Source of the DNA: Chiloscyllium plagiosum
Lineage: Eukaryota
Length of the DNA: 64,000 bases
Direction: 5' to 3'
NCBI RefSeq assembly: GCF_004010195.1
Contig: NC_057758.1
Span: 2,516,205 to 2,580,204 of the forward strand
How positions within the stretch are numbered: the first letter of the stretch is position 1; the number at the start of each line of letters is the position of its first letter. Of this stretch, positions 1 through 62,240 are shown one piece after another. The notes under the pieces are model-generated. The model searched no databases, was not told where the DNA came from, and worked only from the letters and a program-made list of their open reading frames with translations. The position numbers and the translations under genes were made by a program.

Positions 1-159
1 CTGAAAAAAATGAGAATAGGCAAAGAGAAAGAGAGCACGTGGGCAGGAGAGAGATTGGCAGACATATAAAGCAACAAAGAGAGAGATGCAGATAGAGTAG
101 AAAATAAAGAGAGACAGAAAGACAGAGCGATATGAGAAAGTCAGGTTGACGGCACAGCT

Positions 160-628
160 AAAGAGTGGGGGCAAAGAGTACAATAGGTGGATGGGAGTGG
201 GGATGAAGGTGATAGGTTAGAGAGGAGGTTGGCGCGGATAGGTGGGAAGGAAGATTGGCAGGTAGGTCAGAGAATGTAACAAGTAAAGTTAAAAGAAAGG
301 GAGAGGATGGGAGTATGTGACAAGTAAAAGCTGAAAGAAAGGAAGGGGATGCAAGTGAGTTAAGAGCTTCACGGCAGAGGAGATGACCTGGGGGTTGCGA
401 TGAGAGAGAGAGACTCACTGAGATTCTTGTAGAGAGAGGAGGAGAACTCTTTCAAGGTAGGCATCCTTGCAAGAGGCTTCACAGTAAGGTTAAAATCAAC
501 TTCGAGAAAATGTGGACTGCAGGTGCGGTAGATCAGAGTCGACAGTGGGATGCTGGAAAAGCACAGTTGGTCAGGCAGCATCCGAGGAGCAGGTGGATCG
601 ACGTTTTGGGCAAAAGCCCTTCATCGAG
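160..628 (-). mobile_element. Penelope-like element terminal fragment
   Basis: Shares the ...ctgcagatgctggagatcagag...ctggaaaagcacagcaggtcaggcagcatcc...gacgtttcgggc...gcccttcatcag terminus with the copies linked to GIY-YIG/RT coding at 15.8 kb and 52.7 kb. Confidence 0.7.
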
Positions 629-774
629 AATGTGTTTGAGTGTGTTTGCGTAGAGGGTGTGGAGTGCTGGGGGTTGGTGCTTCACTGCCCTATGAGCAGT
701 TAGGGCTGAGCAATAAATGCTGGCATAGTCAGTGACACTCACATTCCATTTTGGTATTTTTCCTGAAAAAAATG

Positions 775-2580
775 GCAGATAACGACAGACAGAGACACAG
801 AAGGGCAGATAGTGACCCAGTGACAGAAAGAGAGAGAGCGAGAGAGAGAGAGAGAGAATTGTCTGAATAAGGAGCGGAAAACATAATGAGTGAGAGAGCA
901 TCTCTGACAGAGGCTGAAAGAATGTGGCAGAGAACAGCAGAGAGACAGAGCAACAAAGATGGAGAGAGGGATAACAACTGAGGGAGAGAGAGAGGAAGAA
1001 AGGAAATGAAACACAGAGTGTGCAGTGGAAAAAACGAAGAGATAGGGAGAGAGTAAAAGGTATAGACAGAGAGAATGTGACACAGAGAGGCAGGCAGAGA
1101 AAGACAGCCAGAGACAAACAGACAGACGGAGAGTGACAGAGAGTGACAGCGTGGGAAAGATAAAGAGAGAGAAAGAGATCGATGGAGCGACAGTGACAGA
1201 TAGAGGTAAACAGACAGACAGAGACAAAAAGACAAACAGCAGGATAGAGAGTAAGGAAGGGAGAGAGTGATTGTCAGACAGAAAGGACGGACAATAAGGA
1301 ATGGAAGAGGGAAACACAGGAAGACAGAAAGAGAGAAACTGACAGAGAGAGAAAAAGAGAAATAAAGATGGCAACTGTGTCGCCAAGAATTACAGAGAAA
1401 GAATGAGAAAAGCAGAGAGATAGATAGAACAATGCAGAGAAACTGAGAACGGCAAAGTGAGAGGGAAGAAGACTCATCAAAGGAATGAAAAAAAAGAAAA
1501 CTGGAATGAGAGCGATAGAGAGAAAGAGAAAGTGGTAGTGAGATAGGAAACATCGAAAGAGAGCCAGCGACAGAGTGGAAGAGACAGAAATAGGTAAAGA
1601 TAAAGTGGAGATGGAAAAAGAGAAAAAGAGAAACAGAGTGAGAAAATGAAAGTGATAGAAAGGGAGTGACAGTGTAATTTGTAGAAAAAAGAGAGAAACA
1701 GAGAGGGGTTAGAGAGAAAGAGGGATAATTAAAGTCTAGGAGAAAGACAGCCATACAGAAAGAGAGACCAAGAGAGAGACAGACAGAGACAGAAAGATTA
1801 TCAGAAGAAGAGAGCATATGGAGAGAGAGTGAGAGAGTCAGACAGGAAAATAAACAAGGAACACAACATGGGCGGCACGGTGGCACAGTGGTTAGCACTG
1901 TTGCCTCACAGCGCCAGAGACCTGGGTTCATTTCCCGCCTCAGGCGACTGACTGTGTGGATTCTGCACATTCTCCCCGTGTCTGTGTGGGTTTCCTCCGG
2001 GTGCTCTGGTTTCCTCCCACAGTCCAAAGATGTGCAGGTCAGGTGGATTGGCCATGCTAAATTGCCCGTAGGGGTAAATGTAGGGGTATGGGTGGGTTGC
2101 GCTACGGCGGGTCGGTGTGGACTTGTTGGGCCGAAGGGCCTGTTTCCACACTGTAATGTAATCTAATCTAACCTAAAAACATAGAGAGTGGGGAAACAGA
2201 GACAGAGAAAAGCGGAGAGACAGTGAGTGACAGAAAGATAAAATTAGGAAAGACAGTGAGTGAAGTGCAGAGAGTGAAAGAGGTGAGAAAATCTCAACGA
2301 CAGAATAACAAAGACAGGTTGAGAGAGCAAAAGAGTGATTGTCAGAGATGACGAGAATAGAGATTGAAAGAGTGAAAGAAAGACCAAGAGTGACCACGAA
2401 AGAAATAGTGAGACAGCGAACAATAGGAAGAGCCAAACTAAGGGAGGAAGAAGGAAACAGAAACCAAAAGGAAAGCTAAGAGGAAGTGAGAGAGACATTA
2501 ATGGAGGGAGTGAAGTCGAAAGGGTGAGAGATACACTGCGGACCATACCGAGGGAATGTAGCAGAGACAGAGAGGGGAAC
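775..2580. repeat. GA-rich low-complexity/degenerate microsatellite tract, interrupted by a SINE
   Basis: Purine-only runs (gaga/caga). These generate the spurious SL-rich minus-strand ORFs. Confidence 0.9.
1870..2170 (+). mobile_element. HE1-like tRNA-derived V-SINE, full length
   Basis: gggcggcacggtggcacagtggttagcactg (A box), gggttc (B box), central tgcacattctccccgtgtctg domain, CR1-like 3' end and (taatc)n tail. Confidence 0.9.
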
Positions 2581-2779
2581 ACAGATAATATCTGACCGAC
2601 ATGTAAAGATTTACCACGGGTGCAGGAGTCCTCCATTTCTGTTTCTTCAGCAGCAGCAGCTTGCACAAGGGGCCTGCCGGGAGCGGTGGGTCACTGATTA
2701 GTGCTTTTAAATTTGAAGTCAGAGAGCAGAGGTTTCTGGGAAAGGAGGGATTTCTTATTGCTATACAAGCCTGTTCAAC

Positions 2780-3290
2780 TATTCAGTAGTGGTCTGTGGC
2801 CTAACACCATATTGCTGTATTTGGCTCATGTCCCTTAATACCTTTACTTCACAAAATATTATCTGTTATTATACTTAACAACTGATCCAGCATCCACTGC
2901 TGTTTGTGGAAGACAGTTCAAAACATCTACCACCATGTGTGGGTCAGAGTGCTTCCGAACATCTCACATGAAAGCTGTGGCCTTAATTCTCAGATGATGT
3001 TCCATCATTCTGAACTTGTTAATGAATGGAAATAGATTGCCCTTATCTATCTTGTCTTTTCCTGTTAATTTCTTGAAGACTTCGATCAGGTCATCCCCTT
3101 AATTTCTAAATTCTCTAGAAAACCATCTTAACTTGTATAATCTCTTCTCATAATGTAACCTCCAAAGTTCAATCATTCTTGTAAAACGACATGATACTTC
3201 CACGAAGACTGATGTATCCTTCACAAGGTCTTGCGCCCAGATCTGCTCACAGTCCTTCAAGTGGGGTCTAACCAGAGCTTTGGAAAAGGG
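2780..3290 (-). mobile_element. Old CR1 LINE 3' fragment
   Basis: Minus strand encodes KALVRPHLKDCEQIW, a degenerate form of the CR1 LVRPHLEYCVQFW motif. Confidence 0.7.
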
Positions 3291-3499
3291 CTTGTCTTCC
3301 ATCTCTTTATCCTCACTAATTCGTTCCCAAGACTCCACTTTCTGCAGGGCTAACACGTTGTGAACCTCTGTAATGCGCAAAGAAACATTTCCGGTTCCTC
3401 AACCCCCCCCCCCCCCCATCCTATACTATCGATCGGCCCAAATGAGAGAATAGTTTATGAACACAAAGCCTCTGGTGCGTTGTTAAACATTAGCCCACA

Positions 3500-3614
3500 G
3501 TGCAACCAATCTCCTCTGTGTGGGTGAATTTGATAATTAACTAGCTGAGCTTCTCTGTGCTCATATAAAACGCTACTGCAAACGTAACATGAGTCCTTGT
3601 GCCTCTGAAGAGCC
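3500..3614 (+). promoter_or_regulatory. Putative TATA/CCAAT core promoter of the defensin-like gene
   Basis: CCAAT at 3506-3510 and TATAAAA at 3564-3570, in non-repetitive sequence just upstream of the ATG at 3615. Confidence 0.6.
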
Positions 3615-3714
3615 ATGTGGATAACAAGGGAAGCTATCTTCTTGATACTGGGAGCCCTGCTGCTCGCACAGTCGATTGCTGATTCAGATGATCATTTCAG
3701 CGCAAATATGATCG
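3615..3714 (+). CDS. Exon 1 of candidate beta-defensin precursor: signal peptide + acidic propiece (MWITREAIFLILGALLLAQSIA-DSDDHFSANMI, phase-1 end)
   Basis: GCC-ATG start at 3615, about 45 nt after TATAAAA (3564-3570). Hydrophobic core AIFLILGALLLA with a plausible S-I-A cleavage site. Donor CG|GTGGGT at 3715 is phase 1, matching the acceptor at 6494. Confidence 0.75.
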
Positions 3715-3972
3715 GTGGGTACATCCCTCAGTAATACCATGCGAGAGCCTATCATGCTGTGCTGCCTCGATCACTGACCCCCACATCCCATCAGAAGGCA
3801 ATCCTCATCAATTGTCAATATTTTCTGTCAGTTCAGTTTGATTGTCCTTCCTTTACTTTCTCCTTGCGAGGAAAGGTGCTTTGACATTCTAGATAAAGGT
3901 TATGCCACTGGTGTTAAGACACAGATAGTAAGGTGTTAGGACTGGCTTGTGAGACAGAATAGCCACCATAAC

Positions 3973-4545
3973 CCGTTATGGAACAGGCCAGACACCCGCA
4001 AAATATTTCTGGAAGGTTAGGTAGGCCCTAACTTTTTCTCATTTTAAAGCAGATGTGAAATGGATAGTCCAAGTGTGATGCAGCTGGTCAAACCATCGGC
4101 TTTAAGCAAAACACGATTTATTTCAGGGCTACTGTTGAAACACAAACAAAAGAAATTAGGATTTAGAATAACTTAACTATTTGAAAACTGAATTGACTCA
4201 ATACCACAACCTAACTAATCAGCTGTTCCAATTCCGGCAACATCACATAAACACATGACTTGGTAAAAGGAAAATGCAAACACAGGAGATACTTCAGACA
4301 ATGTCAGCCAGGGATTAACAGCTGAGGTGTGGCACTTGTTTTGTACTGTAGCATCTTCTTCCTGCTATCAGCTACTTCTCTACTACAACTACACCAAACT
4401 AGAAAAAACAACCTGAACTGGGAGAAATAGCCACCCCCTTTCCATTGTTAACTTAAGCTCTTTTTGAGGCATTTCTGGACATCTACTTTTACGACCTCTC
4501 TTAACACAACCCAAGGACAAAACAACCTTGTTAAAATGTCGTCAG
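3973..4545 (-). mobile_element. Solo-LTR-like sequence inside the defensin intron
   Basis: Similar to the reverse complement of 53990-54793 (gttatggaacaggccagac vs gtctggtccataaca; tgaactgggagaaatagccacccccttt vs aaggggagtggccagttcttccagctca). Confidence 0.55.
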
Positions 4546-5559
4546 AAAAACTTCTTCTCTCCCCACAAAACCCAAACAGACTGAGCTAAGATTTGCACTT
4601 ACTGAAATGATTGGGAGATGATAGCATATGTGTTATATCCCTACGTGTGTTCGAATGTAATGGGCCCGGCTCCAACATTTACTGCCAGTCCGTAGTTGCC
4701 CCCTTTGGAAAGTGGTGTAATCTGCTGTTTTGAGCTGCTACCGTCCGTGTGCTGTAGGTTAACTCAACATGCCCGGAGGGAGGGAATTCCAGGATTTTGA
4801 CCCAACCACAGTGAAGAACTTGTGGATATATTTCCAACTCAGGATTGTATGTGGCTTGGGGAAGCAGAGGGGCAGGGTTGAAAGGGAGAATAGACAATGT
4901 AGACAAGAGGCGGAGTTAACAATGTGCGGCAGTTCAGCGACAAAGGGGCAATAAATGAGCAGTACAGGTTCCTTAAAAATAAGGATGGGTTAACAGTCTG
5001 AAAACTGGATGTGTAATAATATGATTGGATAGTATAATATTGTGGGTTACCTTGATTGAGATTGGACATTATACTCATATGAACTCAGCTGGAATCTGAA
5101 CTAAGCAAACACCATTCAGTAAAGACACGACAGAATAATGTACAACTCTTTTTAATTAGAAAATATTATTTAAGCAATAGTCAATGGACGGGTCTTATCC
5201 ACAAACATCTGGGATGAAACATTTGTGATTGAGATAAAGCTTTGAGCTGTAACTGAAACAAGGGTGCGTATTTCACCCATGTATGCATGAAATTATGTTT
5301 ATAAAATGTCTGGAGTCCCATCGGCCCTCATGTTGAGACAAAGGTTTTAATGCCCCATCGTTTACAGAGTGGATCTTGCAGGGGATCTGCATCCATGTAT
5401 CTGATGCCGTTATCCCCTGGTGAATGCGGGTCTTTGCGGAAAAGGGGCCGAGAGTGTGGTGCTGCAAAAACACAGCAGGTCAGGCAGCACCCAAAGAGCA
5501 GGGCAATCGACGTTTTGGTCAGAGGCTCTTCATCAGGAATGGGAATAAAGAATGCAAGT

Positions 5560-6140
5560 CAGGAGGTTTTTGCTATAACACGCGGTAATTGTGCGACCCC
5601 AGCTGGAATACTGTGAATATGTTAGGGTCTCTCTATCTAAAGAAAAGAAAGATTGGCATTGGAGACAGTTCAGAGAATGTTCATTCGGGTGATCCTGGAT
5701 ATGGAGAGTCATATGGTGAGAGTTTCAGTAGGGCCTGCCTCATTGGAATTGAGAAGAATGAGACACAGTCTTATTGAAATATGCAATATTGTGAGAGGAT
5801 TTTACAGGGTAGATGAGTAGTTGTTCTTTCCCATTGTGAGAGAGGCAAGGTGCAAAAGGCATCATCTCAGAATAAAGGGTCACCTATTAAAGACAGAGAT
5901 GAGAAAGATTTCCTCTCTCAGAGGGTGGTGGATGCGTGGATTTCTTTAACCAAAGAGGGCTATCAAGGATGGTTCGTTAATTATATATTCAAGGCTGAGA
6001 CATACAGATTTGAATCTGGAATGTAATCGAGGGTTATGGAGAAGAGGGAAGTACATGGAATTGCAGATGATCAGATCCTCATTGAATGGACGAGCAGATG
6101 CAAGGGGCTGAATGGCCTATTTCTCCTCCTGTCACTTATG
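5560..6140 (+). mobile_element. CR1 LINE 3' fragment
   Basis: Degenerate RPQLEYC motif and the 3' UTR ending gggctgaatggcctatttctcctcct. Confidence 0.7.
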
Positions 6141-6493
6141 GTAGACGTTCACAGCCGACTCTGAACTCAGTTACGTTTTTATTTCCTCATGGGATGTGGC
6201 GTGGCTGGCTGGATAATGCTTGATGGGCCAAATGGCCTATTTCTCATCTTCTGTTCAGCACCTGCTGTTTGCCTGTTGCGCCCCTGGGAGGAGGGACGCG
6301 TGGAGTAATTTTGAGGGATCCTAATCCTGACTGCTGCCTTGATACCACTCTTGCCCTGGTTAGTATCACCAGGCAGGGAGGGTAGGACTGAGACTTCCAA
6401 GCCTGTTCCTACTTCCACACCCTGCCCTCCCGTATCTCACCCCCCTCTTCCTTGAGACGCAGCTCAGTGAAATCTCCTTCCCTTGCCTTTCAG

Positions 6494-6612
6494 ACAACCT
6501 GTTCGAATGTCGTAAAATTGGTGGAGCATGTCGTGAGAAACCATGCAGTAAGAAGCATCCGGAGGTCTCCAGTCTATGTCTGCATGGAAGACACTGCTGC
6601 AAGTTCCATTGA
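6494..6612 (+). CDS. Exon 2 of candidate beta-defensin: (D)NLFECRKIGGACREKPCSKKHPEVSSLCLHGRHCCKFH*
   Basis: Strong acceptor ccttcccttgcctttcag|AC. Six cysteines spaced C-X6-C-X4-C-X10-C-X5-CC, with G-G-x-C at Cys2 and G-R-H-C-C-K near the end. Stop TGA at 6610-6612. Confidence 0.85.
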
Positions 6613-6869
6613 TCGACACCGCTGGGGTTCACAGAGGGCACCGCCATGCAAGACCAGGACCTCCTCCTGCCAGCAATTCCAATAGAAGCTTTGATCGGCA
6701 GTGGAGGGTGTGGGGCATAGGACCTTGTTCGTGGGAGGAGGAGTGTGAATGGGAACAGAGGACGCTGCAGTGATTGAAACCTCGCCCTGTTTTCTCTTTG
6801 TATGGGGAAAAAGGAAAGAGGGGAGGCCACGTGACGGAATATCAGCCTGGGACTGTTTAAAGCAGAATC

Positions 6870-7800
6870 AGCGAAAATAGGAGCAGCAGTCGGTCACCTG
6901 GCATTTCAAACCTGCTTTCTATTCAGCATTATCATGGCTGATCATCCAACGCGTCCCCTGTTCTCACTTTCTCCCCCATCCCATCTGCATCCTTTATCTC
7001 AAATGACTACGTCTAACTGCTGTTTGGAAATATTCAATAATTTGTCCTTGACTGCTTTCTGAGGCAGAGAATTCCACAGGCTCCCCACTCTCCCGTTTCT
7101 CCTCATCTTAGCCCTAGTTCGGATCTTTTGACAGTGCCCCTTCATTCCGTACTCCATGATCAGCGGGAACATCCTTCCTGCATTTATCTGTCCAGTCCTG
7201 TTCGAATTTTAGCAGTTTCTATGAGATCCCCCTTCATTCTTCTAGGTTCCAGTGTATAGAGCCTTAAGCAATCCAGTTTCTCTTCATACATCAGTCCTGC
7301 CATCTCAGGAATCAGCCTGGGAAAACTTTGTTGCACTCCTTCAATCGCCAGAACATTCTTTCTCGGATGAAGAGCCAAAACTGGATCCAACAATTCAGGT
7401 GTGGTTTCATCCTGTATGCTTGCAGCAAGATCTTCCTGCTCCCGTACTCGAATCTTTTTGCTATGAAGGTCAACATCCCATTTGCCTTCTTCACCACCAG
7501 TTGCACCTGCAATGCATATCTTCAGTGACCATTGTACAAGAACACCTAGTCGTCTTTGCATCTTCCCCTTTTTCCAATCTATCACCATTTCGATAATGAT
7601 TTACTTCCCCATTTTTGCTCCCAAAGTGAATAGTCTCATATTTTATCCACTTTTTATTGCATCTGCCTTGCATATATGCCCACTCACTCAACTCGTCCCA
7701 ATCACGCTGAAGCATCTCTTCTCACAGCTCACCCTCCCATCCAGCTTTGTGTCATATGCAAACTTGGAGATATCACATTTAGTTCGCTCACAAACATCAT
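6870..7800 (-). mobile_element. CR1 LINE ORF2 3' fragment
   Basis: ISKFAYDTKLDGRVSC, VVKKANGMLTFIAKRFEY and RRMKGDLIET in shifting frames. Confidence 0.85.
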
Positions 7801-8284
7801 TATTGTGACTAGCTGGCGTCCCGGCACTGAATGTTGATAATGGGCCAGGATGGGAGGAAAAGTGCTCAAGGAACCCTTCAGCTCCCTTCAGTACTTTCAA
7901 TCTCAATGTTATATGGGGGTGAGGGGGGGGAGGTGATGTGAATGGGGATGTCTGTTTTTCTAATTAAAACTTGCATGAAATCTGAACTGCTCCTTCGTAA
8001 TAAATTTAATAAACTCACTAAATTACCCTTACTGGTATTCCAGTGTATATTTCAGTCAACTTTGGTCCCAAACCATAGCAATATAACAGTGTGGATATGT
8101 ATGTGAGTTTCTCACATTGTGTGATGGGGAGGGAGGTGTGCCAGAGACTTCCAGTGTTCCTTAACGAAACTGTGTGGGGTTGTGTTTGTGACTTTGTGTG
8201 CAAGTGTGTGCATGTGGGTGAGAGAGTGTGGCTGTGAGAAACAATTGATGCAATTGTGAGTGAATTTGTTTGATTTAATTCCCG

Positions 8285-18815: not shown

Positions 18816-20125
18816 TACCCCTGTCATGGATGAACTGGATGCATTGCCGATTGCCAACGAGCTGAGGAAAGCAATCAACGATCTGCCCACTGGAAAGGTA
18901 CCAGGTTTGGATGGCATTCCATCAGAGGCCAAAAGGTGTGCAAAGAGCATCCTGCTGAGCCGCCTGTATGAATGACTATGCCAATCCTGGAAAGAGGGAA
19001 CTATGCCACAAGACATGACAGACTGCAACCTTGTCACCTTACATAAGAACAAAAGGGACAGAAGCGACTGTAACAACTACTGTAACAAATCTCTTTGCTG
19101 GGATCATTGGGAAGATCTTTGCCCACGAGGTCCTGAACAGACTGCAGAAGATCTCCGAAAGGGTATATCACCAGACTCAGTGCAGTTTCAGATCAGAACA
19201 CTCCACAATCGACGTGATCCTTTCCCTTCAACAGCTACAAGCGAAATGCAGACAGCAAAGACAACCACTCTACGTTGCCTTCATTGACCTGACAAGGGCC
19301 TTCGCACTTGTGAGCAGAGGCGGCCTGTTCAAAAACTTCACCAGCATTGGTTATATCCCGAGGTTCCTCAGGATAGTTCAGTCATTCCACACAGACATGC
19401 TGGGCGTTGTTCAGTTTGACGGATCGTCTTTGGAGGTCTTCTGCACTTGCAGTGGTGTGAAGCAGGGCCGTGTGTTTGCCCCCACCCTGTTCGGCATCCT
19501 CTTCACAGTCATGCTGAAGCACAGCTTTGGAACATCAACTAATGGTGTCTACCTCCACAAGAGATCGGGTGGGAGGCTGTTCAGTCTGTCCCGGCTGAGG
19601 GTGAAAAACAAGGTTCGTGAAGCACTCATCAGGGACATGTCCGCTTGCAGACGACGCAGCATTGGCAACACACTCAGAAGAGCAACTGCAACGCCTCATG
19701 GACAGCTTCTCAAGTGCCTGCCAGTACCACAGCTTCACCATCAGCCTGAAGAGGGTCAACGTGTTGTGTCAAGACATTGAGCAGCCCCTGCCATTACCAT
19801 CAACAACAATGCGCTGGAGGAACTCCACGAGTTTACATACCTTGACTCCACGATCACAGACATTCTCTCTCTCTCATCTCAGAGATCAATACACCAATCA
19901 GACAAGCAGCCTCAACATTCGTCAGGCTGACAAAGCAAGTCTGAGCGAGCAGAGAATTGATGACGCGCGCCAAGGTTGCAGACTACAGTGCCTGCATCCT
20001 CAGCACAGCGCTTTATATCAGAATGAACTGAAGCCTCGACTCAAAGCCTTCCACCTTCGCACCCTGAGGTACATCCTGGACATCATGTGGACTGACCGAG
20101 TCACCAGCAATGAGATCCTGGCCGG
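18815..20125 (+). mobile_element. RTE-clade LINE RT fragment (frameshifted)
   Basis: GKVPGLDGIPSE, QCSFRSEHSTIDVILSLQQLQAKCRQQRQPLYVAFIDLTRAF, GVKQGRVFAPTLF and LADDAAL. Confidence 0.88.
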
Positions 20126-26040: not shown

Positions 26041-26539
26041 GAGTCTATCTCAGCCCAGACAGTGCATTAAAGGTTGTGAGGTTAGAATCCGTCTGCATCC
26101 AATCTTGAGGCAGACTGTGTCCATTTCCAAAGTCGGAGTTATAAAATGTTATATGGATTGACTGCCTGCAGATTGTGCAATCTTTGAACAAAATAGCATG
26201 TGTCTGCAAATGCAAATTCATCCCATAGACATATATGTGCATGTACGTGCATGAGAGAGGAAGTGAGTGTGCATGTGATGGAATGTGTGTTTCCTCATGT
26301 TCAAGCTTAGTAGAGGGTGGGGGTGAGTGTGACCGGGTATAAGCCTTTGTGAGCATGTGCGTGGGGTGTATCTGTATGTTTCTGCAGAAATGCAAGAAAG
26401 ATCACACACACACTCTCTTCTGCAGAAATGCAAGAAAGATCACACACACACTCTCCCTCTCTCTGACACACACACACACACACACATTNNNNNNNACACA
26501 TAGTCACACTCTCTCACACACACACACACAGAATCCCAA

Positions 26540-32549: not shown

Positions 32550-34090
32550 TCCAACCCTCGCAACATCCTTGTAAATCTTTTTCTGAACCCTTTCAAATTT
32601 CACAACATTCTTCCGATAGGAAAGAGAGCAGAATTGCATGCAATATTCCAAAAGTGACATAACCAATGTCCAGCACACCCACAATATGACTTCGCAACTC
32701 TGATACTCTGACCAATAAAGGAAAGCATACCAACGCTTTCTTCACTATCCTATATACCTACTACTCTACTTTTAATGATCTATGAACCTGTACTCCATGG
32801 TCTCTTTGTTCAGTGTTACTATTACTATTACTATTAAGTGTATATGTCCTGCTCTGATTTGCTTTTCCAAAATGCAGCACCTCACATTTATCTAAATTAA
32901 ACTCCATCTGCCACCCCTCAGCACATTGGTCCATCTGATGAAGATCCCTTTGTACTCTCAGGAAACATTATTCCGCTACACCTCCAATTTTGGTGATATA
33001 TGCAAACTTATGAACTGAACATGCTTATGTTCACATTTATATAAATGACAAAAAGTAGTGGACCCAGTACCGAATCTTGTGGCATTCCACTCGTCACAGG
33101 CCTCCAGTCTGAAAAGCAACCTTCCACCACCACTGTCTGCCTTCTACCTTTGAGCCAGATCTGTATCCAAATGGCTAATTCTCCCTGTATTCCATGAGAT
33201 CTAATCTTGCAAACCAGTCTCCCTGGGTAACCTTGTTGAACGCCTTACTAAAGTCCATATAGATCACATCTACCGTTCTTCCTTCATTAATCCTCTTTGT
33301 TACTTCTTCAAAAAGCTCAATCAAGTTCGTGAGACATGATTTCCCACACACAAAGCCATGCTGACTATCCTTAGCCAGTCGTTGCCTTTCCAAATGCCTG
33401 TCGCTCAGGATTCCTTCCAACAACTTGCCCACCACCGACGTCAGGATCACCAGTCTAAAGTTCCCTGGCCTTTCTTTACCACTTTTCTTAAATAGTGGCA
33501 CCACGTTAACCAACTTCCAGTCTTGCAGCACCTCACCAGTGACTATTGATGATACAAACATCTCAATAAGAGGACAAGCAATCACTTCCCTAGATTCCCA
33601 CAGTGTTCTAGGATACGCCTGATCAGGTCCTGGGGATTTATCCATTTTTATGCGTTTTACGGCATCCAGCACTTCCTCCTCTGTAATATGGACATTTTTC
33701 AAGATGGCACCATCGATTTCCCGACATTCTAGATCTTCCATGTCCTTCTCCACAGTGAACACTGATGCAAAATATTTGTTTAGTATCTCGCTCATTTCCT
33801 GGGGCTTTATGCGTAGGCTGCATATATTTGCTTCGCTGATCTTTGAGGGGGCCGTATTCTCTCCTTAGTTACTTTTTTGCTCTTAATGTATTTGTAAAAA
33901 ACCTTTCGATTCTCCTTAACCCTATATGCCAAAGCTATCTCATATCCGCTTTTCACCCTTCTGATTTCCTTCTTAAGTATACCCCTACTGCCTTTATACT
34001 CTTCCAATGTTTCTCTCGATCTCTCCTGTCTATACCTGATATATACTTCCTTCTTTTCTCTTAACCAAATCCTCAATTTCTCTGGTTATC
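32550..34090 (-). mobile_element. CR1 LINE ORF2 RT region
   Basis: 206-aa ORF 33175-33795: KSPGPDQAYPR...QHGFVCGKSCLTNLIELFEEVT...[14 protein letters not shown]. Confidence 0.92.
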
Positions 34091-38557: not shown

Positions 38558-39733
38558 TCATTTGTGAACTCGCTGGTGTTCCTGCAGGCTGGACAATCGA
38601 GTGAATCCCTTTGCACACCGAGAGCAGGTGAAAGGCCTCTCTCCAGTGTGAACGCGCTGGTGTCTCTTCAGGTTGGATAATTGAGTGAATCCCTTCCCGC
38701 ACTGAAAGCAGGTGAATGGCCTCTCCCCAGTGTGAACTCGCTGGTGTGCTTGCAGGTTGGATAAGTGAGAGAATCCCTTCCCACACTGAGAGCAGGTGAA
38801 TGGCCTCTCCCCGGTGTGAACTCGCTGGTGTCTCTGCAGGTTGGATAATCGAGTAAATTCCTTCCCACACTGAGAGCAGGCATATGGCCTCTCCCCAGTG
38901 TGAACCTGCTGGTGTGTTTGCAGGTTGGATAAGTGAGAGAATCCCTTCCCACACAGAGAGCAAATGAATGGCTTCTCCCTGGTGTGGACTCGTTGGTGTG
39001 CTTGCAGATGGGATGAACATGTGAATCCCTTCCCACACTGAGAACAGGTGAATGGCCTCTCCCCAGTGTGAACTCGCTGGTGTACCTGCAGGTGGGATGA
39101 CTGTGTAAATCCCTTCCCGCACTGAGAACAGGTGAATGGCCTCTCTCCAGTGTGAACCCGCTGGTGAGCTTGCAGGTTGGATAACTGCGTGAATCCCCTC
39201 CCGCACTGAGAACAGACAAAAGGCCTCTCCCCGGTGTGAACTCGTTCATGTTGCAACAGGGTGTGCGAATCAGTGAATCCCTTCCCACACTGAGAGCAGG
39301 AGAATGGCCTCTCCCCAGTGTGAATACGTTGGTGAATAACCAAGCCAGACGACTGAGCAAATCCTTTCCCACACTCACAGCAAGTATACGGTCTCTCCCT
39401 AGTGTGAACTTGCTTGTGTCTCAATAGGTTTGCTGAATTGGTGAATCCCTTCGCACAATCCAAGCAGGGGAATACCTTTTTCCACGTGTGAATAAGCTTG
39501 TGTGTCAGTTGGGTAGATATATCAGCAAGTCCCTTCCTACAGTCAGACATGAATGGCCTGCCCACAGCATGAACTTGCTGCACTGTCAGCAGATTAGAGA
39601 TAGCACTGAATCCTTTCTCACACAGAAAACAGATGAACGGTCTCTCCCCAGTATGTCTGTGCTCATGAATCTCAAATGCAGATGGGTAATGGAATCCCTT
39701 TCTACAGTGCCCACATTTCCAGGATTTATTCAT
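38558..39733 (-). CDS. Poly-C2H2 zinc-finger protein, 391 aa (14 finger units, 12 canonical; no KRAB/SCAN/BTB domain visible)
   Basis: Uninterrupted ORF with repeated CxxC-x12-H-x3-H and TGERPF linkers. Units 2 and 3 are degenerate (H->V; missing first Cys). Confidence 0.92.
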   Translation of the reverse strand: MNKSWKCGHCRKGFHYPSAFEIHEHRHTGERPFICFLCEKGFSAISNLLTVQQVHAVGRPFMSDCRKGLADISTQLTHKLIHTWKKVFPCLDCAKGFTNSANLLRHKQVHTRERPYTCCECGKGFAQSSGLVIHQRIHTGERPFSCSQCGKGFTDSHTLLQHERVHTGERPFVCSQCGRGFTQLSNLQAHQRVHTGERPFTCSQCGKGFTQSSHLQVHQRVHTGERPFTCSQCGKGFTCSSHLQAHQRVHTREKPFICSLCGKGFSHLSNLQTHQQVHTGERPYACSQCGKEFTRLSNLQRHQRVHTGERPFTCSQCGKGFSHLSNLQAHQRVHTGERPFTCFQCGKGFTQLSNLKRHQRVHTGERPFTCSRCAKGFTRLSSLQEHQRVHK

Positions 39734-40254
39734 GGAGAGACTTTTCTCATTCCCTCTCCAGTTTTAATAATCAGTTGAAACCTTGTCCACACCCAAAACA
39801 TATGAATAGTCTCTCTCTGCTGTGAATTGTGCAATCATTTTTGCAGGCTGTTTTGCTGGTTAATGCTTTTTTCACTGTCGGTATGCTGAAATATTCGCAA
39901 TCAGGTATGCATGTGCATCACAATGCTTTACCAGTCAAATTGACTTTTAAAACCTTGGAAGCAGACAGAACAGAGAAACATTTCTCCCTCCGCAGTGAAA
40001 GGTCCATGACGTTCAGATCCTCGTTAGTTTTAGATTTCTTTCTTCAAATCCTTCCCTTCTTCTATCCTGCAAAAGCATTTTTAGAAGTCATAAATATCTC
40101 AGTGCAAGATAAAAATTCAAAAGAAAATATTATAAAAATATTGCTAATTCATGCTAATTGATAGATTTCTATTCACAATTGGTGCAGATTCAATGTGCCA
40201 AACAGCTTATTTTATGCTGCATTGCTGAATGCTTGTTCTTCAGGATATATTAGA

Positions 40255-52704: not shown

Positions 52705-53785
52705 CAAATGTACTATAAACCTACCGACTCCCACAGCTACCTAGACTACACCTCCTCCCACCCTGCCCGCTGTAAAAACGCCATCCCATATTCCCAATTC
52801 CTTCACCTCCGCCGCATCTGCTCCCAGGAGGACTAGTTCCAATACCGAACAACCCAGATGGCCTCCTTCTTCAAAGACCGCAATTTCCCCCCAGACGTGA
52901 TCGACGATGCTCTACACCGCATCTCCTCCACTTCCCGCTTCTCCGCCCTTGAGCCCCGCCCCTTCAATCGCCACCAGGACAGAACCCCACTGGTCCTCAC
53001 CTACCACCCCACCAACCTCCATACACATCATATCNNNNNNNNNNNNNNNNNNNNNNNNNNNNNNNNNNNNNNNNNNNNNNNNNNNNNNNNNNNNNNNNNN
53101 NNNNNNNNNNNNNNNNNNNNNNNNNNNNNNNNNNNNNNNNNNNNNNNNNNNNNNNNNNNNNNNNNNNNNNNNNNNNNNNNNNNNNNNNNNNNNNNNNNNN
53201 NNNNNNNNNNNNNNNNNNNNNNNNNNNNNNNNNNNNNNNNNNNNNNNNNNNNNNNNNNNNNNNNNNNNNNNNNNNNNNNNNNNNNNNNNNNNNNNNNNNN
53301 NNNNNNNNNNNNNNNNNNNNNNNNNNNNNNNNNNNNNNNNNNNNNNNNNNNNNNNNNNNNNNNNNNNNNNNNNNNNNNNNNNNNNNNNNNNNNNNNNNNN
53401 NNNNNNNNNNNNNNNNNNNNNNNNNNNNNNNNNNNNNNNNNNNNNNNNNNNNNNNNNNNNNNNNNNNNNNNNNNNNNNNNNNNNNNNNNNNNNNNNCTCT
53501 AACTCAGCACCACCTTCCGAACCTGCAATCTTCTTCCTGACTTCTCCGCGCCCACCCCCACTCCAGCCTATCACCCTCACCTTAACCTCCTTCCACCTAT
53601 CGCATTTCCAACGCCCCTCCCCCAAGTCCCTCCTCCCTATCTTTTATCTTAGCTCATTCCTGAAGAAGGGCTCATGCCTGAAACGTCGATTCTCCTGTTC
53701 CTTGGATGCTGCTTGACCTGCTGCGCTTTTCCAGCAACACATTTTCAGCTCTGATCTCCAGCATCTGCAGTCCTCACTTTCTCCT
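52705..53785 (+). mobile_element. Penelope-like element: RT C-terminal region, assembly gap, 3' terminus
   Basis: YKPTDSHSYLDYTSSHPARCKNAIPYSQFL...RRICS...MASFFKDRNFP. Confidence 0.9.
53660..53687 (+). ncRNA. Minimal type I hammerhead ribozyme core
   Basis: CTGAAGA-a-GGGC tcat GCCT-GAAA-cg-TC with palindromic ACGT; all core nucleotides intact. Confidence 0.65.
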
Positions 53786-54793: not shown

Positions 54794-57700
54794 ACTCTTT
54801 TTGTCTCTCTTTCCCCTGTCTGTCTCAATCATGAAGTGTCCCTCACTCACTATTTCTATCTCTCACACTCTCTCTCTTTCCNNNNNNNNNNNNNNNNNNN
54901 NNNNNNNNNNNNNNNNNNNNNNNNNNNNNNNNNNNNNNNNNNNNNNNNNNNNNNNNNNNNNNNNNNNNNNNNNNNNNNNNNNNNNNNNNNNNNNNNNNNN
55001 NNNNNNNNNNNNNNNNNNNNNNNNNNNNNNNNNNNNNNNNNNNNNNNNNNNNNNNNNNNNNNNNNNNNNNNNNNNNNNNNNNNNNNNNNNNNNNNNNNNN
55101 NNNNNNNNNNNNNNNNNNNNNNNNNNNNNNNNNNNNNNNNNNNNNNNNNNNNNNNNNNNNNNNNNNNNNNNNNNNNNNNNNNNNNNNNNNNNNNNNNNNN
55201 NNNNNNNNNNNNNNNNNNNNNNNNNNNNNNNNNNNNNNNNNNNNNNNNNNNNNNNNNNNNNNNNNNNNNNNNNNNNNNNNNNNNNNNNNNNNNNNNNNNN
55301 NNNNNNNNNNNNNNNNNNNNNNNNNNNNNNNNNNNNNNNNNNNNNNNNNNNNNNNNNNNNNNNNNNNNNNNNNNNNNNNNNCGCAGACACGGGGAGAATG
55401 TGCAAACTCCACACAGGCAGTTGCCTGATGCGGGAATTGAACCAGTTGTGAGGCAGCAGTGCTTACCACTGTGCCACCGTGGTCGGCGCAAAGGTGAGGG
55501 CAAATGTGGTGTGGGGGTTGACTGTAGGGTATGTGCTAAGGAGTGAAACTCATGGTATGAGAGTGTGTATGTGAGTGAGGGTGACAGTGGAAGATTATGT
55601 AGGGGAGTAAACGTGACAGTGGGGTTGTGTGCTGCGGAATTAGATTGATGGTGCACGAGTGTGCGGAGAAGTGAGCTTGACGGTGGTAGGGTGTACATGT
55701 GGCACTGAGCTTGACGGTAGGGGAGTGTGGAAGGGAGGGTTAGTGACAGTGGGGCTGTATGCGGGGGAGTAGGGTTACTGTTTGGGAGTCTCCAGGGGGG
55801 TGAAGCTGACCATGGGGTCGTCTGTGGGGGTGCGAGCTTGATGGTCCGGGTGTTTGCGGGGAAGTGAGCTTGATGGTTTTGGAATTGTGGGGAGTGAGCT
55901 TCACAATTGGTTGTGTGCTGAGGGTGTGTGTGACAATGGGGTAGCGTGAGCTGGAGTGAGCTTGACTGTTGCATAGACTGTGGGTAAGTGAGTGTGACGG
56001 TTGTGGAGTGTTTGGGAGAGTGGCAGTGATAGTGGGGAAGTGTGTGGGGCAGTGAGCATGACAGTGCAGGAGTGTGTGAGTGAGTGAGCATGTTGGTAGG
56101 TGAATGGGTAAGGAGTTAGAGCATGTGCTGTTATGAAGATGTGATTGTCATTTACCTTGAAGATAATTATAAAACAACAAAACTACCTGACAGAAGCAAG
56201 TGTTCCAAAAAGAAAATATAATGCAGCATTTGGTCAAAACATTTGACAGGCATCTTGCCTGGAAAGGATGAAACAGATTTTAATTAGGCCAATGAGTTTA
56301 AATTATGCACAGAAAAATACCAAACTTCAATCCAGTTTGTATTTAGTCTATTGACAATCTGAAAGTCCAATGACACAATCCGCTGCATTCGGTTTGTAAG
56401 ACCAGAGAAGATTGAACAGTTGGAGGAGAACTGCCAAGCCACCAGTTTGGAAAAGACTGTCCGAAAAACAGTCTCTTAAAGGTATGTATTTCGATGAGTA
56501 ACCTTAGAGGTAGAATCCCCAAGAAGAAGAAAAGAAGACCGAAATGCAAAGAAGAATGAAACCTGCCTGGTTCCGAGAAATGAAGTTTTGATTGTAAATC
56601 GTAATCTGGAGTTTTATCGACTAGCATTATAGAACGGCAGATAAAAGATAAGTTCGAGGAAGGAGTTGTAAATACTTGTTAGCTAATTATCCTCGGTAAT
56701 ACTTTAAGAAATAAAGTTGAACTAGTTCTTGGACCATCGAATGTTCACAGAGTACTGCAGGGAATAACTCTTTTCTGCGTTGCTGCTTTTAAATTAGCAG
56801 AGGGGTTTACGTGGTGCCGTTCGTTTGGCGCTCGGGGCCATGATTTGAACTGGTTTAGACTGATTTGAATATATTTGGTGGTTCGAAAAGTCACACCAGA
56901 TTTAAATACTTGCAGCCTAGTGTCCTGAACCTTTAAAGAAAATATAGCTGAGACAATATATTTCATTTCGGCGACTTGTGGTTGGTTAAATTAAAAGTGA
57001 GAAAAATGGTTTTTAAAATTGCAACAGAGTTTGGGAATTTGAAGATAATTGTCAAATATTCCACAAAGTTTAAAAGAAAAGAAAAAGGTCATACTTTTAG
57101 AATTAGCAAATAAGTTAGATTTGGGTTTAACCAAGGAGACAATTAAAGCTGAAATTGTAAGGGATTTACTCAAACACTTAGTTGCGTCATGGAAACAGAC
57201 AAGTGCATTAGATGTAGAACAAACTTAAATTACAATTAAGGAAAATGAGTTATAAGATAAAAAGAGAAAAATGAAAGAGAGAGAGAGAAAGGGAAAGAGA
57301 GCGAAGAAAGGGAGAGAGAAAGAGAAAGAGAGAAGCAAAGGAGAGAGTANNNNNNNNNNNNNNNNNNNNNNNNNNNNNNNNNNAGGGTAGAGAGTGAGGG
57401 GTAGAGGAAAAAGAAAGAGAGATAAATTTCTTACGTGACCAAAATATGAGAGAACATGAACTTGAGGATTTGCAAAATAGTCAGCAATGTCCAGTTAACA
57501 GGATGGAGGTGAAAAGAAAAGATAGAGATTTACATAAATATGTCAAAGCTCTGTCACATTTTGATGAGAACGACGGTGAACACTTCTATATTAAATTTGA
57601 AATCTTGCTCAGGCAGGTGGTGTGGTCCGAAGATTTATGGGGAATGCGAGATTCGACTCAACTGGTAGGTAGAGCCATTGAGTTATTTACCGTGCTGTCA

Positions 57701-60209: not shown

Positions 60210-62240
60210 ACTCAGAAAGCACAGCCAGAGAAAAACAAGCAGTTACAATTTTGAAAGATATAGGATCTAACCAGTTGCTGATAATAAGAAATGAGCGAAT
60301 TTGAACTCTTTTTGATCAGTTACCCGAGGGTGGGGCAATTTGTGGGATGGATGGACAGAAATTTAGCATCTCCCTCTGTAAAATCAGGTTGGCGTGCTAA
60401 CTCCAGACTGGGGAAGTTACAGTGCCAGTGAATGACCGAGTGTCATTTCCAGCAATTCAGTTTGTTCTTTGGAAATATTTGGCTGGACCCAAGGTGGGAG
60501 TAACATCCCTTGTTGTGGAGAAGCGCAAGGAAGACCAAGAAACCGATGAGTTAAAACAGAAATATTCTGTCATTTTCTCCAACTGTAAACTGAAAACATT
60601 CCACTATCTTCAATCACAGCACGAAGTGAAAATGAAAGATAAAGGTGAAGGAGTTGCGTTTCAGTTAGCCGATACCCTGTTTGACATAATGGTGCAGGAC
60701 AGACCTGAAGAGGCAGAGGGTCAGAGAGAAGTTTCTAGAATTGAAAGACGAAGCGACTTGCAACAGCAAGACAAGGCAACAAAAATATATGCATTATGCA
60801 TACTCTGAAGATTAGGCAGAGAATATTCTGGAGCGTTACTATCTGAAAGATAGGATCCGAAGCAGAAATGGAGACGAGGATAAAGGCATCCCATCCGTAC
60901 TGTTCACGATTAGTGATGCCCCAAACGAATCTTCTCATCTCACTCCCTTTGTGTTAATATTCCATCATGATATGAGCGGCTCTTTGAAATTAATTAAAGA
61001 AAAATGGACGCGTTGGACCGAAGGGTCTGTTTCCATGCTGTACATCTCTATGGCTCTATGACTCTAACATCAAAGTCGTAGATCTCACACCTAGATTATG
61101 TGTCAGAGGTGAGGGAGAAATAAATAGAGTAGGTGAGTTAGCTGAACAGCACCTGAAGAGTGCACAGTCCAGAAGGAAACAGGTGGCAGATAAAAGCTCT
61201 GAGACTCGGATTTATTCCCGAGGGGAAAACGTGTTAGTATTATTAGCAGTGATAGGAAATTGCTTCAAAAACAGGTTTTGCGGTCCTTATCAAACTGAGA
61301 AAAAGTTGAGTCAGGTGAATTATTTAGTAATGATGACAGATAGAAAAGAAAGATATCGAGTATGTCGTGTTGACATGTTGAAACCGTATTATACGAGAGA
61401 GAAAGAAATGGAGAAGCAGGTATTAGCTACTGCCACGCAGAATGAGGAATCAAATCCAGGTGATGTGGATTTAATGTGCTTCCAAAAAGATTTTAAAACG
61501 AAGAGGTCCTTGAGGAGTGGAATGGCTTAGTAAGCTATCTGTCTCTGGAGTATAGAAAACATTGAAAGATTTGTTACAGCAGTATAAGGACATAGGTAAG
61601 AATCAGCTGGGGAGGAGTAATGCTTTTGTACATAGTAAACGTAGAGAGTACTGCTCCGATAAAAGCAACGCCCCTATCAGCTTAAACATTTCAAAGCTAG
61701 ACAGGTCCAGATGAAGGTGGAGGCCATGCTCAACGAGGACATCATCGAACTAAACCAGAGAAAATGGAGTTCCCCGATCATCTCAGTTACCAAACCGGAC
61801 GGGACTGAATGACTGCGTGGATTACTGGAAGGTCAACGCCATTACAAAATTCGACTCATATCCAATTCCCAGATTGGCAGACTTTGTCGAGAAAGTTGGA
61901 TAAGCCAATTACATCATCAAGTTAGACTGAATGCGTGGTTACTGGCAGGTACCTTTATCAGAGTCTCAAAATACATTTACGTGTTTTCAACACCAAATGG
62001 GCTATATCCGTTTAAAGTAAAGCCCTTTGGAATGGGAAACACACCCGCCACTCTCCAGAGGTGCGTTAACAGAGTTGTGTTAATGGGGTAACAAAGTGTG
62101 CATCCTATTTGGACGGTATAGTGATTTTAACAAGTCTCAAAAAGATCACATGGGACAGTTGACAAAGCTCTTTGAATGACGACCAGAAGAAAAACTGGTG
62201 ATTAACTTAAATAAAGCTGAATTCGCGAGAGAGAGGGGAT

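Follow-up and report, generated by a model that had tools for sequence, protein, structure and literature searches.

Gene structure and sequence signals

The window, that is the whole 64-kb stretch of DNA analysed here, contains two short coding exons on its forward strand (3615-3714 and 6494-6612), which probably make up a single-copy, two-exon gene of the beta-defensin family with a TATA promoter inherited in common with its paralogs. The features of the locus are the following.

3530..3541, + strand: conserved upstream promoter element of the TGAT-N-ATTAAC type, 20 nt 5' of the TATA motif
3564..3570, + strand: TATA box TATAAAA, 51 nt 5' of the ATG, aligning with the TATA motifs of paralogs L037, L035 and L038
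3589..3624, + strand: upstream ATG, out of frame, opening an 11-codon mini-ORF; a caveat to the gene model, probably at or before the transcription start
3615..3714, + strand: coding part of exon 1, with the signal peptide, the start of the acidic propiece and one base of a split codon (translation P0001)
3715..6493, + strand: phase-1 intron, GT..AG, 2,779 nt, with high-copy repeats throughout (donor and acceptor read in the sequence)
6494..6612, + strand: coding part of exon 2, with the propiece end, the six-Cys beta-defensin domain (6/4/10/5) and TGA at 6610-6612 (translation P0002)
7963..7968, + strand: candidate distal poly(A) signal ATTAAA, 1,351 nt 3' of the stop codon and the first canonical signal there

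A previous, sequence-only reading of this DNA had given the TATAAAA at 3564, the ATG at 3615, the 33-codon exon, the phase-1 GT at 3715, the acceptor at 6493 and the 119-nt exon ending in TGA, and all of these coordinates were reproduced. It had also called the start a Kozak ATG; the context indeed has G at -3, but T instead of G at +4. Exon 1 consists of 33 codons and one additional G, followed by a donor (TCG/GTGGGT at 3715) that is only moderate in strength. The acceptor, a pyrimidine tract with CAG, ends at 6493, 14 nt before Cys1, and with the donor lying after 3n+1 bases this places a phase-1 intron directly before the Cys domain. The codon split across the junction (G/AC) encodes D, exon 2 runs for 119 nt up to its TGA, and the primary product has 72 residues, 38 of them in the exon 2 peptide P0002; the peptides of the two exons were analysed separately. 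P0002 contains eight K/R, three E and four H, has Cys spacings of 6/4/10/5 and carries the GGAC motif at Cys2, in agreement with the counts given before. Relative to the TATA box, the expected transcription start would fall near 3590-3597, at about the upstream ATG at 3589.

Exon 1 would encode an N-terminal secretory signal peptide of about residues 1-22 that ends in SIA, as judged by a heuristic in which the best 10-residue hydropathy is 3.22, an Arg stands in the n-region, and S-I-A lies ahead of an acidic propiece. The layout of this exon agrees with that of the signal exons of five paralogs. A protein search with the exon-1 peptide detected no paralog, and the relatives of exon 1 were found by position and layout only. 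Following the -3/-1 rule, the signal peptide would probably be cleaved after SIA. Next would come a short acidic propiece with five D residues, about 11 residues of which are supplied by exon 1, and last the 38-residue cationic domain, with a net charge of about +5 in addition to its four His.

Splicing and genomic context of the exons

When a broad six-Cys regular expression was run through all six frames of the 64-kb window, exon 2 was the sole match; the same expression in 100 shuffles gave a mean of 0.02 matches (maximum 2). In a scan of window positions 1-6493 for an ATG, a hydrophobic core and a phase-1 GT, 3615-3714 was again the only match, against a mean of 0.33 in 200 shuffles, or 0.03 when the donor was to be equally good, with a donor matrix that is approximate. 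The exon 2 frame has no in-frame ATG upstream and must therefore be spliced, and a single-exon reading of exon 2 was dropped for this reason.

The exons had previously been described as sitting among transposon debris. The intron is full of high-copy repeats, seen as peaks in the DNA depth profile, and both exons themselves show single-copy depth. Four sequencing samples are DNA, because their contigs span the exon-intron borders. The contigs of three other DNA samples keep the frame intact and differ by a synonymous variant at 6513 and an A-to-T substitution at 3666, within the signal peptide, and this level of exon polymorphism (2 variants in 219 nt) is not below that of the surrounding unique DNA. 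An antisense ORF at 6369-6893 (175 aa) was dismissed as a gene, as it has no Pfam family and an odd composition.

A large family of paralogs in the same genome

The sequence-only reading described a hidden gene and missed that it does not stand alone. Two single-protein searches of the genome found about 109 matching places, concentrated on one 10-Mb contig, the one that carries the window gene and 25 of these places. An identical 6/4/10/5 six-Cys frame is intact in 24 of the 31 loci examined, and in 22 of these 24 an AG is placed exactly 14 nt ahead of Cys1, that is, in phase 1. Fifteen members align without a gap and with all six Cys invariant, and the comparison of P0002 with the profile of the 14 other members by hhalign gave a probability of 97.9% (E 4.9e-13). 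All 14 other members have Glu at alignment position 21, which is absent from the window gene, and the window gene keeps the family motif GGxCRxxPC. Two coding exons are also present in the five paralogs whose exon 1 was located, and both the signal exons and the promoter module are homologous between the window gene and its paralogs. The window gene is likely to be single-copy and divergent within a family that has expanded strongly.

The promoter is likely to be common by descent to the gene and its paralogs as well. The upstream element may resemble an HNF1 site, and its ATTAAC core is invariant in five of six aligned family promoters, the sixth having AGTAAC. One copy of the pattern ATTAAC-N16-26-ATAWA is present in the window, against an expectation of 0.47 for 64 kb, and the pattern is also found upstream, in gene orientation, at five of eight paralog loci. 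At the other end of the gene, no AATAAA or ATTAAA is found in the window for 1,351 nt 3' of the stop codon, whereas such a signal lies no more than 260 nt past the stop in 21 of the 22 paralog rows having enough flank, two of these rows representing a single locus; the poly(A) signal of the paralogs lies about 130 nt past the stop. In the alignment with the paralog on contig C18, an AATAAA that closes the collinear block stands opposite the ATTAAA at 7963, a candidate signal that makes a long 3' UTR (about 1.4 kb) possible. The missing proximal signal and the out-of-frame ATG at 3589 are both features on which the sequence-only reading was silent.

Relationship to beta-defensins

The beta-defensin framework permits the spacings C-x(4-8)-C-x(3-6)-C-x(9-13)-C-x(4-7)-CC, and the six-Cys array of the window gene falls within these ranges, with G-x-C before Cys2. 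The Pfam family PF00711 matches the window peptide over essentially the full profile (positions 3-36 of 36), and paralog exons score 24.1 and 22.4 bits against a gathering cut-off of 21 bits, but the window peptide itself stays below that cut-off with 16 bits (E 0.012). Among the 15 members, four are matched at E up to 0.1 (best E 8.9e-6). Membership in PF00711 would thus be reached transitively, via the paralogs and not directly, through matches that are consistent but individually weak. In a sequence search of the PDB, the top five of seven matches to the window peptide are beta-defensins, and with the family profile each of the nine matches is either a beta-defensin or platypus DLP-1. In the ESM Atlas, the closest two clusters are both Defensin_beta.

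A representative protein search with P0002 returned one match, a 1,892-aa protein (E 5.5e-4), which was rejected as a relative because it has no aligned stretch. Searches for homologous proteins (among longer proteins, among those of near length, and with a 13-member family alignment) gave no candidate; these searches are word-based and weak for a 40-residue query.

In the AF2 model of the domain (pLDDT 84.7), a helix spans residues 5-8, and there are strands at 10-13 and 33-36. The predicted fold of the 38 residues is a small beta-sheet with a short helix at its N-terminal side, stabilised by three disulfides; by analogy with the family, these would pair C1-C5, C2-C4 and C3-C6. Two fold searches put beta-defensins first. 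In Foldseek, ranks 1-24 are all beta-defensins or a defensin-like peptide (hBD-1 with TM 0.69/0.72 and probability 0.99), with E-values of 0.05 or weaker throughout. In VIA-align wide, only 33 of 48,161 chains reach Z >=2, with hBD-2 first (Z 4.0, rmsd 2.2 A, 36 residues). Such scores (E >=0.05, Z <=4) are not strong, though they are usual for 38 residues. The assignment to beta-defensins in the sequence-only reading is supported by the acceptor position and phase of the paralogs, the signal exons, the promoters, the hhalign match, the paralogs above the Pfam cut-off and the predicted fold.

Comparison with known defensins

The closest likeness is with the beta-defensins of tetrapods. Those with solved structures, such as hBD-1, hBD-2, hBD-3, DEFB106, avian AvBD2/3/7 and crocodile CpoBD13, have the same six-Cys framework, in which Cys2 is preceded by G-x and the terminal CC is followed by basic residues, and the cationic mature domain and the predicted fold are alike. 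In both cases the signal peptide has an exon of its own and a phase-1 intron directly precedes the Cys domain. Mammalian two-exon beta-defensin genes carry the whole Cys domain on one exon, and so does the window gene. Many paralogs clustered in one chromosome region are another common trait. Cys4 comes one residue later in the window peptide, with spacings of 10/5 compared to 9/6 in the aligned human chains. Unlike the tetrapod genes, the window gene belongs to a cartilaginous fish, scores below the Pfam cut-off, has a putative 3' UTR of about 1.4 kb and has the family-specific TGAT-N-ATTAAC element in its promoter.

Teleost beta-defensins belong to the same family and have the same general precursor plan of a signal peptide followed by the six-Cys domain. 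Among the vertebrate beta-defensins that the consulted reviews name, those of teleosts are the most basal. Their genes have three exons and two introns, according to the part of PMC4690011 that was consulted. This structure is not matched here, where a single exon holds the whole Cys domain together with the stop codon and there are two coding exons in total.

The big defensins of invertebrates and amphioxus have a C-terminal domain with the same cysteine array and a phase-1 intron just before it, which the sections available of PMC7203481 use as an argument for common ancestry. Both the array and the intron position are those of the window gene, and an oyster big defensin is among the weak fold matches (Z 2.4). 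The hydrophobic globular N-terminal domain of big defensins is absent here, as the 33 residues of exon 1 comprise a signal and a short acidic stretch, and the scan for signal-like exons in window positions 1-6493 gave no other candidate for a further upstream coding exon. Crotamine, platypus DLP-1/2 and sea-anemone peptides are of the same fold and disulfide-rich size class (Z 2.2-3.9). These toxins with a beta-defensin fold score no better than host-defence defensins, and nothing ties the window gene to venom.

Functional gene or silent copy

A true family member can look intact and still be a silent or decaying copy, no longer properly expressed and on its way to becoming a pseudogene, for example by loss of its proximal poly(A) signal. 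For the window gene this is unlikely, although it is the most probable of the alternatives. The absence of a poly(A) signal for 1,351 nt, against 21 of 22 paralog rows with one in at most 260 nt, would fit such a copy, and so would an exon polymorphism that is not below the surrounding unique DNA and a Pfam score under the cut-off. The closest relative of the window gene and its sole close paralog, on contig C18, is clearly degenerate: Cys4 is gone, and so is one of the two cysteines of CC. Between the two, the exon differs at about 36% of 114 nt, no less than the flanks (30-34%). The NG86 ratio is 0.19, but because synonymous sites are saturated, dN/dS in this comparison is uninformative on selection. 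Against a silent copy, the window gene has an open frame with all six Cys, and its two splice sites, TATA box and conserved upstream element are intact as well; the distal ATTAAA at 7963 with its aligned AATAAA in the paralog makes a long 3' UTR possible. The window gene also retains GGxCRxxPC, whereas the C18 paralog has lost three of the four non-Cys positions of this motif. The chance that all six Cys codons survived without constraint is roughly estimated at about 3%, on the assumption of about 20% neutral change per site on the lineage. With the six Cys and GGxCRxxPC kept beside a degenerate paralog, the history of the window gene looks constrained.

If the gene is functional, as we consider probable, the secreted peptide would by analogy with other beta-defensins most likely serve in host defence, through damage to microbial envelopes and/or signalling to immune cells. 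Crotamine, the platypus defensin-like peptides and some mammalian beta-defensins are precedents for other main roles of such a peptide, whether toxin-like, as a receptor ligand (chemokine- or melanocortin-type) or reproductive. A role of this kind is quite improbable for the window gene. Crotamine, platypus DLPs and sea-anemone peptides do appear among the fold-search matches, the family is diverse and of very large size, as seen elsewhere together with functional diversification, and the subfamily of the window gene departs from the conserved Glu. However, no feature of the sequence indicates any particular non-defence function, the best structural matches are host-defence defensins, and a net positive charge, an acidic propiece and a TATA promoter of epithelial type are usual for host-defence beta-defensins. 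That two short open frames in repeat-rich DNA were paired by chance, with no gene present, is barely credible: both exons are short and each database match is weak by itself, but by the shuffles a six-Cys frame is expected 0.02 times and a signal exon 0.03-0.33 times, many paralogs have the acceptor position, signal-exon layout and promoter in common with the window gene, the hhalign E-value against the paralog profile is 4.9e-13, and both exons lie in single-copy DNA outside repeats.

Novelty and significance

No shark beta-defensin was found in the protein collections searched, and none of a shark, ray or chimaera in the literature searched, which was covered at abstract level with subscription journals outside its scope. 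In the sections consulted, reviews trace vertebrate beta-defensins back as far as teleosts and name none from sharks or rays (PMC7203481, PMC6795676, PMC12734493). It is worth noting that beta-defensins in cartilaginous fish are expected from the distribution of the family, and will not be very surprising to a specialist.

A wider proposal can be put forward only tentatively: cartilaginous fishes may have a greatly expanded beta-defensin repertoire, largely unannotated and undescribed, in which exon 2 exists in about a hundred copies and at least 10 sequence types across several megabases of a single chromosome, with 6/4/10/5 spacing in every copy, two exons with the ancestral phase-1 intron and a shared TGAT-N-ATTAAC and TATA module. 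Within it, the window gene would represent a divergent lineage that is functional and single-copy. If this is true, both the two-exon architecture and the clustered expansion would go back to the base of the jawed vertebrates, and the third exon of teleosts would be derived. A well-supported family in cartilaginous fish would bridge the invertebrate big defensins and the beta-defensins of bony vertebrates, would make the mammalian-like two-exon structure old, and would show short two-exon immune genes to be overlooked by automated annotation. Under the same proposal, the window peptide may be active in shark body fluids, which are rich in salt and urea and in which typical beta-defensins lose activity. 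Shark peptides would also be natural subjects for testing how defensins perform when salt and urea are high.

Gene structure

The gene under study consists of two coding exons on the forward strand.

Coding parts of the gene in the window
3615-3714, plus strand: coding part of exon 1, translated as P0001 (33 aa)
6494-6612, plus strand: coding part of exon 2, translated as P0002 (38 aa)

All elements named in an earlier sequence-only reading are present where it placed them. These are TATAAAA at 3564, a Kozak ATG at 3615 (with G at -3, and T instead of G at +4), 33 codons and a single further G (to 3714), then the donor GTGGGT, a pyrimidine-rich tract closing in CAG at the acceptor position 6493, and an exon 2 of 119 nt with its TGA stop at 6610-6612. 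The counts made for the mature part were also right (8 K/R, 3 E, 4 H, and a spacing of 6/4/10/5 residues between successive Cys). The codon split across the intron, G then AC, encodes Asp. Judging from the depth of resequencing contigs, both exons are single-copy, and high-copy repeats are found in the intron and the 3' flank. An out-of-frame ATG at 3589, about where transcription is expected to start, counts as a caution. A single-exon reading of exon 2 was rejected: its frame stays open upstream of the acceptor without a Met, so a single-exon gene is impossible. A 175-codon stop-to-stop frame antisense to exon 2 (6369-6893, minus strand) matches no Pfam family and abounds in Pro, Arg and Ser; it is taken as chance.

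A large paralog family

The window corresponds to C49:2516205-2580204 of a 3.56-Gb assembly. Three Na,K-ATPase beta-subunit exons from this genome all have 2zxe_B/3a3y_B as their first PDB match, the beta-1 exon at 140.5 bits compared with at most 131 for the other beta-1 chains. These two entries are the enzyme of the shark rectal gland and the chains scoring lower are mammalian, which fits a cartilaginous fish but falls short of proof. The genome was queried with P0002, the Pfam Defensin_beta profile PF00711 and two paralog peptides, and the merged matches of these four queries fall in 109 distinct places: 25 on contig C49 (1.29-8.0 Mb), 6 on C46 (3.84-4.40 Mb), 3 on C50 and 64 on small unplaced contigs, among others. 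Many of the matches on small contigs are probably duplicate haplotype pieces, and the weakest of the 109 may be due to chance. This is a very large beta-defensin-like family, with copies concentrated on C49, the 10-Mb contig that holds the window.

The exact 6/4/10/5 spacing in an intact frame was found in 24 of the 31 loci examined, representing at least ten sequence types. Of these 24, 22 agree with the window gene in both position and phase of the acceptor, with a pyrimidine tract and then an AG exactly 14 nt ahead of the Cys1 codon; of the other two, one has its AG 8 nt before Cys1 (also phase 1) and one has AC instead of AG. At locus L031 (C49:3715107-3715202) the six-Cys frame is intact and the acceptor AG has become AC, and this is probably a disabled copy. 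Fifteen members align without gaps over 38 residues, with six invariant Cys and the consensus GGxCRxxPC, which P0002 fits fully. By hhalign, P0002 matches the remaining 14 at a probability of 97.9% (E 4.9e-13). Glu at alignment position 21 occurs in all 14 other members and is absent from P0002, which instead has Glu at 23, as does its close paralog on contig C18; the missing Glu 21 counts as a further caution. One family type (loci L020, L021, L022, L026 and L033, at C49:7.84-7.85 Mb, C49:5.61 Mb and on small contigs) has an exon-2 frame that runs 18 to about 60 residues past the CC pair, with a hydrophobic tail after CCRAKE, and might encode defensins with a C-terminal extension.

A protein search with P0001 returned nothing beyond P0001 itself. 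A scan for signal exons (ATG, then an uncharged hydrophobic core, then a phase-1 GT), was applied to the upstream DNA of eight paralogs, over as much as 10 kb each. It found such an exon for five, separated from exon 2 by introns of roughly 0.8 to 6.8 kb. These five have one layout, consisting of M, a hydrophobic core, [A/V][Q/E]-x2-3-A-[D/E], a short charged propiece and the phase-1 GT, and exon 1 of the window gene has AQSIAD at the corresponding point. The 150 nt 5' of the ATG can be aligned across all six genes, which have in common a TGAT-N-ATTAAC element, presumably resembling an HNF1 site, situated some 20-30 nt 5' of the TATA motif. In the window the pattern ATTAAC-N16-26-ATAWA has a single occurrence (3536-3569), against 0.47 expected per 64 kb, and it lies upstream and gene-oriented in five of the eight paralog loci. 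This promoter module is common to members whose peptides are only 20-35% identical.

Promoter modules (in the paralog loci: ATTAAC, then a TATA motif 16-26 nt on)
Window 3530-3570, plus strand: TGAT-N-ATTAAC and TATA, shared with paralogs
L035:8327-8360: paralog module
L042:8776-8806: paralog module
L036:1739-1772, minus strand: paralog module
L037:3472-3505, minus strand: paralog module
L038:1087-1117, minus strand: paralog module

Relationship to beta-defensins

Taken alone, the sequence of P0002 is a weak but coherent beta-defensin match. The alignment with PF00711 spans 3-36 of the 36 profile positions (E 0.012) and scores 16 bits, below the 21-bit cut-off. A PDB sequence search gave seven matches, of which the best five are hBD-3, hBD-2, an hBD chimera and DEFB106 (E 0.27-0.86) and the other two Nab2 zinc fingers (E > 5). 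In the ESM Atlas the two nearest clusters are Defensin_beta (scores 0.85 and 0.79), which serves as a lead only. The link becomes stronger with the paralogs and the family profile. Paralog exons reach 24.1 and 22.4 bits against PF00711 in the genome scan, 4 of the 15 members match PF00711 (E <= 0.1, best 8.9e-6) and 3 match PF13841, and the nine PDB sequences found with the family profile at E <= 1 are all avian, penguin or human beta-defensins or platypus DLP-1. By sequence comparison, Defensin_beta membership is shown at the level of the family and reaches P0002 by way of its paralogs.

The predicted structure agrees with this. An AF2 model of P0002 from a 15-row alignment has a mean pLDDT of 84.7 and a pTM of 0.52, and Foldseek ranks 1-24 are all beta-defensins or defensin-like peptides, the best being hBD-1 (TM 0.69/0.72, probability 0.99, E only 0.05). 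Against the full set of 48,161 representative chains, the model reaches Z >= 2 with only 33. Nearly all of these are defensins (beta-, alpha- or big) or toxins sharing the fold, and hBD-2 comes first (Z 4.0, rmsd 2.2 A over 36 residues). Such low scores are normal for a domain so small, and the model-based comparison would not be convincing alone. Together these results support the earlier interpretation that the window gene belongs to the beta-defensin family.

By the same sequence and fold tests the gene is of one family with tetrapod beta-defensins and would work in a like manner, with Cys4 displaced by one residue when compared with the human chains among the PDB sequence matches. Teleost beta-defensin genes are described as three-exon in the relevant part of PMC4690011, whereas the window gene has two coding exons. 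Big defensins, as outlined in PMC7203481, share the phase-1 intron but differ in having an extra N-terminal domain.

Beta-defensins are expected in the cartilaginous-fish lineage. For antimicrobial peptides of these fishes, section 14 of a 2019 fish-immunity review names only transferrin, squalamine and kenojeinin (PMC6795676), and a table in a 2025 review gives kenojeinin I alone (PMC12734493). A full-text literature search, extending to listings and abstracts outside subscription journals, found no paper describing a shark, ray or chimaera beta-defensin. Among 13 family members, none has three 5-residue words in common with any protein of 11-81 residues in a collection of 5.8 billion clusters. 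By literature and protein-cluster search the family is a new large branch of beta-defensins, for which genome annotations may already carry models.

Function

It is probable that this is a functional beta-defensin gene. The reading frame and all six Cys are preserved, as are the two splice sites and the two promoter elements, and contigs of three other DNA samples cover exon 2 with no frame change, which favours function. Two variants fall in the exons, 6513 T>G (CGT to CGG, read as synonymous) and 3666 G>A, which changes Ala18 of the signal peptide to Thr.

That the copy is intact but silent is rather unlikely, and further observations call for caution. AATAAA or ATTAAA lies within 260 nt of the stop in 21 of 22 paralog rows, mostly at 106-139 (among those having 200 nt or more of flank, one locus being counted twice, as L019 and L041). 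In the window gene neither follows the stop until ATTAAA at 7963, 1,351 nt downstream. This ATTAAA aligns with the AATAAA of the sole close paralog of exon 2, at the end of a collinear block, a weak hint that this subfamily might be characterised by a long 3' UTR. Another caution is that paralog itself (L003/L015, C18:2262666-2262779), which is degenerate. It has 47% residue identity to P0002, has lost Cys4 and a Cys of the CC pair, and departs from the consensus at three of the four non-Cys positions; no exon-1 homologue was seen. Its collinearity with window 6024-7912 comes with 66-70% nucleotide identity. A copy on contig C99977 (L004/L016, 15787-15900) is probably an assembly duplicate, since its alignment figures are identical. 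Divergence between the window gene and the C18 paralog is about as high in the exon (36%) as in the flanks (30-34%); the NG86 estimate (dN 0.35, dS 1.88) supports no conclusion on selection because synonymous sites are saturated.

In the functional beta-defensin reading, the signal peptide would be cleaved after SIA, an acidic propiece with five Asp would offset the +5 mature domain, and three disulfides would form in the beta-defensin pattern. The secreted peptide would then act in host defence by attacking membranes or cell walls and/or by immune signalling. A functional peptide with a role other than defence seems improbable. Chance resemblance without a gene can practically be dismissed: a deliberately broad six-Cys expression, run in six frames over the 64-kb window, matches exon 2 alone (shuffle mean 0.02, n=100), and the signal-exon scan of the 6.5 kb upstream has 3615-3714 as its single match (shuffle mean 0.33, n=200, or 0.03 with an equally good donor, the donor matrix being approximate).

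Other features in the window

N runs at 26489-26495, 53035-53496, 54882-55381 and 57350-57383 total 1,003 bases. The two long ones fall in a region that is open in all six frames, and this points to simple repeats around assembly gaps or masked sequence. Retroelement fragments at 19019-19777 (plus strand), 33178-33864 (minus strand) and 60994-61527 (plus strand) match reverse transcriptase RVT_1 (E 2.3e-14 and 2.4e-6) and, weakly, an integrase C-terminal region. A 401-aa open frame at 38561-39763 on the minus strand contains eleven C2H2 zinc fingers (zf-H2C2_2, E 6.9e-90) and is probably the finger exon of a KZNF-like gene.
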